Origin: Pseudomonas phage HHBS18_1
Length of the DNA: 64,000 nucleotides
Reading direction: 5' to 3' (one strand)
Sequence record: PQ287651.1
The notes beneath the pieces are model-generated. The model was given only the letters and a program-made list of their open reading frames with translations, did no database searches and had not been told where the DNA came from. The position numbers were made by a program, and so were the translations under genes. Positions 29,685 to 30,623 of the stretch are shown here, piece by piece (position 1 is the stretch's first letter; every line of letters begins with the position of its first letter).

Positions 29685-29707
29685 GCCCGGCTCTCGCCGG
29701 GCTTTTT
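29685..29707 (+). terminator. intrinsic terminator
   Basis: gcccggctctcgccgggc plus TTTTT. Confidence 0.65.
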
Positions 29708-29886
29708 CGTGGCAGGGGTTATTTTCAAATTATTTTTAGATTTCTGGGAGTTTCGGCCAATATGGGCAATATGAAATTTCTCAGGAAAAGGCTCAGAATG
29801 CTCGTATAAGAGCCGTTCGAGTGTAGGTATGGTGAGCTACTACTTAGCCGTAGAAGGACAGTGTAACGCTTAATAGGAGGGTTAGA

Positions 29887-30060
29887 ATGAAGATTGACAA
29901 CGGTAGCGCGTATGCGTATTGGCTAGCGGATATGAAAGAGTTTGTTTCTCAGATGGATGCCACAGAGATTGAGAAGAGGGCTTGTATAGCAGACTTAATT
30001 AGCTGGTATCAGCGAAGAGTACTGCACAGAATTAAACGGGAGGAATACGAGGCGATCTAA
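29887..30060 (+). CDS. small hypothetical protein (57 aa) inside the ori-like region
   Basis: RBS aggaggg. Confidence 0.3.
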   Translation: MKIDNGSAYAYWLADMKEFVSQMDATEIEKRACIADLISWYQRRVLHRIKREEYEAI

Positions 30061-30063
30061 GCT

Positions 30064-30160
30064 AGGGACCGGACAGATTTTTAGGGACTGGATAGATTTT
30101 CACAGGCTGCAAAATTAGGAACTGGGCAGATTTTTAGGAACTGGACAGTTTTTCACAGAA
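30064..30160. repeat. four ~19-bp direct repeats (iterons) GG(G/A)AC(C/T)GG(A/G)(C/T)AGATTTTT(A/C)A
   Basis: four tandem copies in two pairs; flanked by AT-rich DNA and further gttagca repeats at 30205-30270. Confidence 0.6.
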
Positions 30161-30416
30161 GGGGATTTTTCTACAGAGGAATTTCCCCTGAAATTTAGCA
30201 GGATTTCTCAGAAGGGCGGATCGTTAGCAGGCTATCTAATTGGTTAGCAAGCTACCTTTAATCGTTAGCACACTAACTAAAAATTCCTAGGACGGACCTC
30301 AGTTGGCACGAACGTTGCAAGCCCGCACCAGTTTCCCGGGCAGGCGTAGGCCTCGACTATCCGTCGTGAAGGCGATATGTAGTTGGGGACTCGCACCCCG
30401 CGTTTAAGATGCGCCC

Positions 30417-30444
30417 ATTCTACTATGACAAACCCCTTTGTCAA
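30417..30444 (-). promoter_or_regulatory. leftward sigma70-like promoter TTGACA-N16-TAGAAT firing into the iteron region
   Basis: reverse complement reads TTGACAaaggggtttgtcatagTAGAAT. Confidence 0.45.
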
Positions 30445-30623
30445 CATAATTTTATGGCACAGTCTTTGCAATTGCAATTAGCGTGCCAATCTAAATCTCA
30501 GGCTCCCTCCGTGTTTGCCTCCGGTGCTCGGCCTCCTGCCTGCGTTGCCCGCCTGCCTGTCATTATACACAAGCTATCAAGACAAGCAAGAAAAATTATA
30601 GAGAAAAATCTACATAAAACAGG

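Follow-up and report, generated by a model that had tools for sequence, protein, structure and literature searches.

A conserved non-coding module of Pseudomonas phages combines predicted leftward small RNAs, sigma-54 sites and a DNA repeat array

The 64,000-nucleotide stretch of DNA analysed here (the window) comes from Pseudomonas phage HHBS18_1 (record PQ287651.1), a Pseudomonas aeruginosa Pakpunavirus of the PAK_P4/JG004 kind. Near its middle lies a gap with hardly any coding sequence, which an earlier reading of the letters alone (the original prediction) had proposed as a putative replication origin resembling transcription-primed ones. Our best-supported reading is that the gap serves an early gene region as a conserved control module without coding function, a hub of small RNAs and regulation. 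It would combine two small RNAs transcribed leftward, sigma-54 sites on either side of them and a DNA-binding repeat array that could act as operator, enhancer or origin. We give this reading a probability of about 50%. It builds on what is observed: the anatomy of the gap, its conservation across genera, the placement of its promoters, the covariation and strand of its hairpins, and a leftward RNA in phage PAK_P4.

Results

Anatomy of the gap

The gap and its elements, with positions in the window, are as follows.

29685..29702, plus strand: intrinsic terminator of the upstream gene for a 338-amino-acid (aa) protein, annotated in PAK_P4; left border of the gap
29720..29779: AT-rich tract, 28% GC, with two CAATATG; Pakpunavirus-specific and tied to the following open reading frame (ORF), not to the iterons
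29887..30060, plus strand: 57-aa ORF (ORF57), phrog_8175, function unassigned
30063..30158: iterons, a set of four direct repeats of 19 nt, TAGGRACYGGRYAGWTTTT, grouped as two adjacent pairs; presumed protein-binding
30160..30189: imperfect 13-nt inverted repeat between iterons and dyads; not conserved in phage EM
30223..30277: three imperfect dyads of 14 bp, GTTAGC-NN-GCTAWC, with their first letters at 30223, 30243 and 30264
30283..30410, minus strand: small RNA B (sRNA-B), core of PAK_P4as16, ~128 nt, three hairpins, ending at a U5 tract at 30283
30304..30319, plus strand: sigma-54 site P1, TTGGCACGAACGTTGCA, perfect extended consensus
30417..30444, minus strand: sigma-70 promoter PB, TTGACA-N16-TAGAAT, 11/12 matches; predicted start ~30410
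30455..30488: back-to-back sigma-54 sites P2 (plus strand, 30455-30470) and P3 (minus strand, 30488-30473), TGGCAC-N5-TTGCAATTGCAA-N5-GTGCCA
30489..30555, minus strand: predicted core of small RNA A (sRNA-A), 5'-GCGGGCAACGCAGG, hairpin GGC-AGGAG-GCC (30540-30530), then GAGCACCGGAGGCAAACACGGAGGGAGCCUGAGAUUUAGAU
30562..30589, minus strand: sigma-70-type promoter PA, TTGCTT-N16-TATAAT; predicted start ~30555
30624..30652, plus strand: sigma-70 promoter of the SprT-like gene, 'promoter_04' of PAK_P4; right border of the module

Every element that the original prediction listed is present at or near the place it gave, and the gap is indeed gene-poor. The terminator is strong (seven G-C pairs followed by TTTTT), ORF57 is the sole plausible ORF, and the four ~19-bp iterons stand in two pairs (30063-30081, 30082-30100, 30116-30134 and 30135-30153). 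Two descriptions changed on closer inspection. The three GTTAGCA copies are real but are better described as the left halves of imperfect dyads, and the AT-rich tract exists, but its CAATATG 'repeats' are merely two copies, 9 bp apart. Missed altogether were three perfect sigma-54 sites, a second leftward promoter, the core at 30489-30555 and a second AT-rich stretch (30560-30619, 25% GC).

The non-coding DNA is conserved across genera

Over 1.1 kb at the locus, identity to LPS-5, PAK_P4, JG004 and over 100 further records is 96-98%. We aligned 15 Pakpunavirus versions, up to 14-20% divergent. Within the gap, ORF57 varies most among these genomes and occurs as several alleles; it is exchanged for a different small ORF in EM, a divergent Pakpunavirus, and is missing in UAVern-like phages. 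The non-coding sequence from 30064 to 30575 is far more conserved than ORF57, and 30223-30420 is nearly invariant. Since the non-coding DNA is better kept than the ORF beside it, selection acts on the non-coding sequence itself.

Low-stringency BLAST and pattern scans recovered the module or its core in three named genera, Pakpunavirus, Nankokuvirus (PAK_P3) and Plaisancevirus (phiPMW). It also occurs in metagenome contigs and in phages whose records give no genus: UAVern (from Antarctic soil), XD2, NoPa, ventosus, phiK7A1, Kremar and SYP. NoPa and its relatives grow on P. putida, and ventosus, phiK7A1 and Kremar on P. syringae. The module always occupies a gene-free gap of ~450-770 bp; in most cases a terminator comes directly before it, and in all cases a rightward sigma-70 promoter lies downstream. 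Across genera the sRNA-A core retains ~75-83% nucleotide identity, and the flanking 338-aa protein has 27-28% identity in P. syringae phages such as PN09 and phiPsa374. Among phages of P. aeruginosa, P. putida, P. syringae and other hosts, these 500 bp of non-coding DNA are kept better than the neighbouring proteins, which argues for a function under strong selection. Two scans for the core in bacteria (one genome for each of 185,579 species) gave nothing in the first and a single chance match in the second, in a hydrolase gene of a Methylovulum metagenome-assembled genome, and BLAST against 72,556 plasmids gave none.

In SYP (L013 578-1147; L numbers are our labels for compared sequences), a 'DNA-binding domain protein' is inserted directly upstream of the module. 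Judged by its motifs it is probably an AP2/HNH-like homing endonuclease, which suggests that homing-type elements target such gaps. PAK_P3 has a 920-bp unannotated gap (L031 22817-23739; record 62817-63739) that holds at least five copies of ATTGTGTAAC together with inverted copies, GTTACACAAT.

A purine-rich core with a covarying GGA hairpin follows promoter PA

In 15 of 15 scored lineages, a -10 hexamer stands 7-9 nt upstream of the minus-strand sequence GC(R)GGCAACG, with a -35 hexamer at 16-17 bp. The -10 sequence itself varies by lineage (TATAAT, TAGAAT, TATTCT, TACAAT or CATACT), and two further cases read by eye, L016 (TTTAAT) and PAK_P3 (TTGACA-17-CATTCT), agree with the pattern. Because the -10 is fixed in place before the core, conservation starts at the predicted start of transcription, ~30555. 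We infer that sRNA-A is expressed.

The 64-nt core is purine-rich, with 26 G, 18 A, 15 C and 5 U (40% G, 28% A). It contains a hairpin of 3-5 bp whose stem differs in nearly every lineage (at least 10 stems, among them GGC/GCC, GGUC/GACC, GGCU/AGCC, GGCG/CGCC, GACC/GGUC, GACU/GGUC, CCCC/GGGU, CCCC/GGGC and GGCC/GGCC), while its loop always contains GGA. In a 12-lineage alignment, 93.8% of the stem cells were paired, compared to 74% in shuffles, a value reached by 0 of 500. There were eight double changes, slid controls were paired at only 12-50%, and two G.U pairs are valid on the minus strand only. The hairpin has been multiplied in two phages: it is triplicated in the metagenome phage L025 (reverse complement of 7282-7330, GUAC-GGA-GUAC-GGA-GUAC-GGA) and duplicated in ventosus (L028 1061-1105, GCGC-GGA-GCGC-GGA, with stem GCGC/GCGC). 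In the rest of the core, GAGCAC(C/U)GGAG(R)(Y)AAACA(S)(S)G(R)GG, it is the primary sequence that is conserved. A protein-coding origin of this conservation was rejected, as SYP carries a 1-nt indel, EM an in-frame stop, and no start codon is present.

Promoter PB drives an annotated leftward RNA

PB is the leftward consensus promoter of the original prediction, and it proved genuine: its position is conserved (in EM, UAVern, L025, XD2, NoPa, SYP and phiPMW) and it is linked to a transcript detected by RNA sequencing (RNA-seq). Its hexamers, read from 30444 to 30417, are identical to those of the rightward promoters at 31172 and 31713. In GenBank record KC862300 (PAK_P4) it is 'putative promoter_03', and the same record holds a minus-strand 'putative antisense RNA PAK_P4as16', based on RNA-seq, which equals ~30283-30482 of the window and corresponds to no ORF. 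Both features were annotated from RNA-seq (Blasdel 2017, PMC5563952), and the function of PAK_P4as16 is given as undetermined (PMC5563952, PMC12197685). The 3′ end of the annotated RNA coincides with the U5 tract.

Counted from the predicted start, the first 92 nt of sRNA-B have a minimum-energy fold of three hairpins at -35 kcal/mol (61% of the ensemble; z = -1.76). In hairpin 1, six pairs show compensatory changes across eight lineages, with stems GGGG/CCCC, GGAG/CUCC, CCCU/GGGG, CCAC/GUGG and CCGG/CCGG. Its several U.G pairs are valid on the minus strand only and would be C.A mismatches on the opposite one. No reading frame in sRNA-B is conserved between lineages. The local GC skew changes sign at ~30230-30290, and the minus strand is G-rich over 30290-30620.

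Sigma-54 sites lie at fixed distances from the RNA starts

Exact matches to TGGCAC-N5-TTGCW occur three times within 185 bp, and P1 also fits TTGGCACG(R)NNNTTGCW perfectly. With a relaxed consensus, the 64 kb contain 9 sites, compared to 0.36 expected from base composition; 3 are in the module and 5 in the terminal repeat. Counted from the start of the core, sites lie at +64 (in the RNA's orientation) and +82 (opposite) in nearly all lineages, and a third lies at +233 to +244, that is, 87-92 nt past the start of sRNA-B (8 lineages). P1 points rightward in Pakpunavirus and leftward in UAVern, L025, XD2, NoPa, ventosus and phiK7A1. Of the P2/P3 palindrome, L015 and L016 keep the rightward half only, L025 and XD2 the leftward half only, and NoPa one orientation only. 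Kremar has no sigma-54 site, with an unrelated hairpin at the position of the palindrome, and keeps the iterons and the core.

We considered whether TGGCAC..GTGCCA might instead form an RNA hairpin and rejected this, as the 5-nt spacers are neither conserved nor complementary. Because the spacers vary and half-sites stand alone (in L015, L016 and L025, and at P1), the conserved unit is the sigma-54 half-site, not an RNA stem.

The rightward early promoter is preceded, at ~70-100 bp, by a rightward sigma-54 site in phiPMW, SYP, L015, L017, L025 and PAK_P3. In three of these phages (phiPMW, SYP and PAK_P3), the conserved palindrome ACGCGT(R)(Y)(R)CGCG(T) directly follows the rightward site and overlaps its predicted start (L003 3172-3200; L013 1683-1712; L031 10946-10975).

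A second gene-poor region, at 38700-40300, corresponds to the direct terminal repeat of Pakpunavirus genomes (termini of PaP1 and K8, PMC3652863, PMC4773840). It carries sigma-54-like sites at 39052 (plus), 39268 (minus), 39547 (minus), 39924 (minus) and 39964 (plus), as well as four GATAGC-N3-4-GCTATC dyads, related to those of the module (38754, 39027, 39201 and 39885, spanning 38754-39899) and CTTAGCTGTCGCTAAG. In relatives the region contains an HNH homing-endonuclease-like gene.

The host rtc operon is RtcR- and sigma-54-dependent. It is the sole host operon strongly induced by PAK_P3 (PMC4933390), and thus sigma-54 activation operates in infected cells. We read the sites of the module as genuine binding sites for sigma-54 holoenzyme, presumably occupied. 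They could serve as extra condition-dependent promoters, as boundary elements or as a sink for sigma-54.

Iterons and dyads form the left half of the module

Tandem Repeats Finder reported two 19-nt arrays with 89-90% match over the iterons, and the pattern GGRACYGGRYAGWTTTT has no further occurrence in the window. Copies 2 and 4 bear a CACAG extension. Across lineages the iteron consensus is RACYNGRCAGWTTTT(Y)ACAG, with repeats of 19-22 nt in 3-4 copies everywhere but the phiPMW/SYP group; the same consensus is found in EM, UAVern, L025, XD2, NoPa, ventosus, Kremar and PAK_P3. L010 shows a clean deletion of one copy. The phiPMW/SYP group has other repeat sets, CATTCTCA in three copies and AAATTCCCA, at the equivalent place. 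When folded as RNA, the iteron region gave no convincing structure. The iterons are best read as protein-binding DNA. As one consensus serves phages of different Pseudomonas species, the binder would be a conserved protein, either of the host or of the phage core.

The dyads are spaced by 20 and 21 bp, two helical turns, and the window holds 8 sites of this type, compared to 1.35 in shuffles. XD2 also appears, by eye, to have three dyads with a period of ~21 bp. In XD2, NoPa, phiK7A1 and L025, two TGTTCCAC(G/A) copies ~22 bp apart lie between the dyads and the sigma-54 site (L026 660-700; L027 765-800; L029 800-835; L025, reverse complement, 6985-7030); Pakpunavirus genomes do not have them.

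Discussion

A proposed regulatory hub

In the model that we favour, host sigma-70 RNA polymerase would transcribe leftward from both PA (30589 to 30562) and PB (30444 to 30417). PA would give sRNA-A, presenting GGA in a hairpin loop along with the invariant single-stranded segments CAC(C/U)GGAG and ACA(S)GGAGG. PB would give sRNA-B (PAK_P4as16), ~128 nt long with three hairpins and a stop at the U-tract at 30283. Because unpaired residues are conserved across genera, both RNAs may act in trans on a Pseudomonas-conserved partner, either protein or RNA. The sigma-54 sites would add condition-dependent promoters in both directions or mark the boundaries of units. The left half (30063-30277), with its four iterons and three dyads, would most likely supply operator or enhancer sites for the promoter cluster.

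Several observations weigh against this model. The sigma-54 sites flip between lineages and are missing in Kremar, which is odd for ordinary promoters, and a six-frame translation of the window contains no GAFTGA, the signature of enhancer-binding proteins. The 3-5 GGA triplets in the 64 nt of the core are not above what composition predicts, being reached by 38-299 of 500 shuffles. Annotated PAK_P4as16 begins at ~30482, not at 30555, where sRNA-A is predicted to start. No clear intrinsic terminator follows sRNA-A, Rfam has no match for either RNA over 30283-30560, and fold z-scores are modest (-1.6 to -1.8). Finally, the iterons and dyads fit an origin equally well.

A possible replication origin

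In an updated form of the original prediction, the iterons and dyads would bind an initiator or host factors and the promoters would provide transcriptional activation or an RNA primer. G-rich sRNA-A on its C-rich template could form an R-loop, as in ColE1 RNAII or T4 oriF/G. Taken as a whole, the origin interpretation is partly supported, in that the anatomy and the promoter hold; we consider an origin possible but doubtful.

The repeats themselves speak for it: there are 3-4 iterons of one consensus across genera, plus phased dyads, in a large, conserved and gene-free gap with several promoters in both directions. The original prediction would have been undermined had the iterons been missing from related genomes, and they are kept in relatives and in other genera. 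The repeat-set swap of the phiPMW/SYP group is reminiscent of origins whose repeats change together with the protein that binds them. As a transcription-primed origin calls for, both PB and PA are directed leftward at the repeats, and the excess of G over C in sRNA-A (26 to 15) lies directly downstream of a promoter.

On the other side, no initiator-like gene lies within ~3 kb, and the ten neighbouring ORFs are without an initiator, helicase-loader or Rep domain. The AT-rich tract lies 290 bp from the iterons, on the other side of ORF57, and the iterons of UAVern, XD2, NoPa and PAK_P3 have no such tract beside them; the DNA flanking the repeats has 38-48% GC. The only relaxed match to a DnaA box, TTTTTCACA (30148-30156), is inside iteron 4, where other lineages read TTTTTTACA. 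Transcription into the iterons, another part of the prediction, is not seen in the annotated RNA, which stops at ~30283, short of both dyads and iterons, although minor read-through is possible. The locus resembles no plasmid origin (BLAST, 72,556 plasmids). Published guesses at an origin, for which GC skew was the sole basis, favour the genome termini, where the terminal repeat lies (PaP1, PMC3652863; K8, PMC4773840). A role as primer or R-loop alone would need neither conserved unpaired residues nor a covarying hairpin with a loop motif.

Large-scale GC skew in the window has no inflection of the origin type. On the plus strand it goes from a mean of ~+0.11 (4-30 kb) to ~+0.04 (30-38 kb), the wrong direction for a bidirectional origin, and the drop more likely marks a change of gene class. 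Skew falls at the module (~30 kb) though genes stay on the plus strand, and becomes negative only past ~40 kb.

Comparison with known origins gives likenesses on each side. Lambda ori also has four ~19-bp iterons with a short leftward sigma-70-driven RNA, OOP, nearby, and OOP RNA was once proposed as a primer. However, the lambda iterons are inside the initiator gene O and beside an AT-rich region, while here neither adjoins. ColE1 RNAII/RNAI and the transcription-primed origins of T7 and T4 share the order of a promoter and then a structured, G-rich transcript, but here the PB transcript stops before the repeats. In Pakpunavirus, the opposing sigma-54 promoter P1 could yield an antisense RNA as in ColE1; the reversed orientation of P1 in other genera means that such a counterpart of RNAI is not conserved.

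Other explanations

It is also conceivable, but unlikely, that the module and the terminal repeat together are a platform for capturing conserved host factors. Sigma-54 holoenzyme would be parked at consensus sites of either orientation, at fixed distances behind the small-RNA starts. It could serve there as a roadblock or boundary, or its capture could dampen sigma-54-dependent host responses such as the rtc RNA-repair operon, which these phages induce. Through its GGA hairpin and GGAG tracts, sRNA-A would contact the ribosome or an RNA-binding protein conserved in the host. If this is true, a whole clade of Pseudomonas phages would share a non-coding takeover element of a new class.

Alternatively, the gap could be a sigma-54 enhancer-promoter unit, with the dyads (and perhaps the iterons) as upstream activator sites for P1-P3, and for P4 in other lineages. 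An enhancer-binding protein would bind as three dimers, one hexamer, and place expression of early genes or of the phage RNAs under the control of a host signal. P1 is perfect, and Pakpunavirus dyads lie at ~-53 to -107 from its predicted start. The sites upstream of the rightward early promoter in six lineages, the renewed pairing of dyads and sigma-54 sites in the terminal repeat, and the induction of rtc by PAK_P3 (PMC4933390) also fit. But P1 is flipped in six lineages, so that the dyads are then downstream of it, and orientation toward a transcribed unit is not conserved. The dyads of the module and of the terminal repeat differ in their spacers (2 to 4 nt), the window encodes no GAFTGA protein, and Kremar keeps iterons and core without a sigma-54 site. 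To our knowledge, neither dyads nor iterons match a known Pseudomonas activator motif. We regard such a unit as quite improbable.

A decoy for host factors seems less plausible still. Here sRNA-A would titrate RsmA/RsmN (CsrA family) through GGA, and the DNA sites would absorb sigma-54 holoenzyme as the phage replicates. In its favour, every lineage has GGA within the loop of the covarying hairpin, and that hairpin is multiplied in ventosus and L025. ACA(C/G)GGAGG agrees with the CsrA core obtained by systematic evolution of ligands by exponential enrichment, ACANGGANG. The sigma-54 sites occur in either orientation and are clustered also in the terminal repeat. However, since the GGA count is no more than composition predicts, an RsmA sponge is unlikely; only one hairpin loop is demonstrably conserved. 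Like RsmY, RsmZ and CsrB, sRNA-A has GGA in a short hairpin loop and in single-stranded segments, but it differs from them in having just 3-5 GGA, no homology and no Rsm-type terminator. Rfam gave no RsmX/Y/Z match over the core, the lone sub-threshold rsmX match being on the upstream terminator. Nor is it evident what a phage whose lytic cycle is short would gain.

Last, unannotated small protein genes on either strand have very little to recommend them: GenBank records annotate up to six 'hypothetical proteins' here and there are open frames of 30-100 codons (for example 30277-30477, minus strand, 66 aa), but no frame is conserved, indels shift the frame (XD2 compared to L025; SYP compared to the others), and a stop interrupts the frame in EM. 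The substitutions preserve pairing in stems and are not of the synonymous kind, and there is no Shine-Dalgarno or start context. Annotators thus have grounds to drop the spurious 'hypothetical proteins' at this locus.

Relation to previous work

Pakpunaviruses and their relatives (PAK_P1, PAK_P4, PaP1, JG004 and PAK_P3) are prominent candidates for phage therapy, and their non-coding biology is almost unstudied. One of the RNAs of the hub is already annotated. PAK_P4as16 shares the locus (98% identity), promoter and strand of the sRNA-B unit, but was reported as one of 17 'antisense' RNAs and is not antisense to any conserved gene. In the literature searched, neither the module as a feature of several genera, nor the core RNA, nor the sigma-54 pattern was found to be reported; the accessible papers do not describe the structure or conservation of PAK_P4as16, the sRNA-A core, the sigma-54 sites or the repeats.

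A host-type sigma-54 promoter sequence in a Pseudomonas phage has a parallel in phage YuA, whose promoter was reportedly described by Ceyssens in 2008. It is functional and was confirmed as P015 (PMC10914365). The window differs in having at least 8 predicted sites, in two clusters and either orientation, at fixed distances from the small-RNA starts and in the terminal repeat. What our analysis yields is two candidate RNAs and a defined set of DNA sites, and it links the module, unexpectedly, to sigma-54 of the host. If the repeats are an origin, it would be the first located for this phage group.

Neighbouring genes and minor observations

All genes from 4 to 40 kb are on the plus strand. Those relevant to the position of the module are as follows.

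7780-9642, plus strand: primase/helicase gene, 20 kb from the gap
9703-12686, plus strand: intron-split DNA polymerase gene
22.8-25.6 kb, plus strand: ribonucleotide reductase; beyond it are small early ORFs without assigned function
28648-29664: gene for the 338-aa protein, function unassigned; left neighbour of the gap
30688-31161: SprT-like gene (Pfam match); right neighbour of the gap

A packaging site at the locus was rejected, as it lies ~12.6 kb from the mapped PaP1 terminus (PMC3652863). Rfam, at the gathering threshold and at E<=10, returned nothing credible in 29500-30800, and a search of the gap for tRNA and transfer-messenger RNA found none. A tRNA label over the locus, which arises through a match to phiMK, is false and reflects a mis-coordinated feature. 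The phiMK record KU761955 (L002) contains impossible spans, with a 'tRNA-Gly' at 6787-67912 (~61 kb) and a 'terminator' at 5304-53863. Elsewhere in the window, a group I intron at 11645-11913 (Rfam RF00028, 71.9 bits) divides the DNA polymerase gene into 9703-11712 and 11997-12686, and 15 tRNA genes are clustered on the plus strand at 61258-63941, with an extra weak Rfam tRNA match at 61413-61486.

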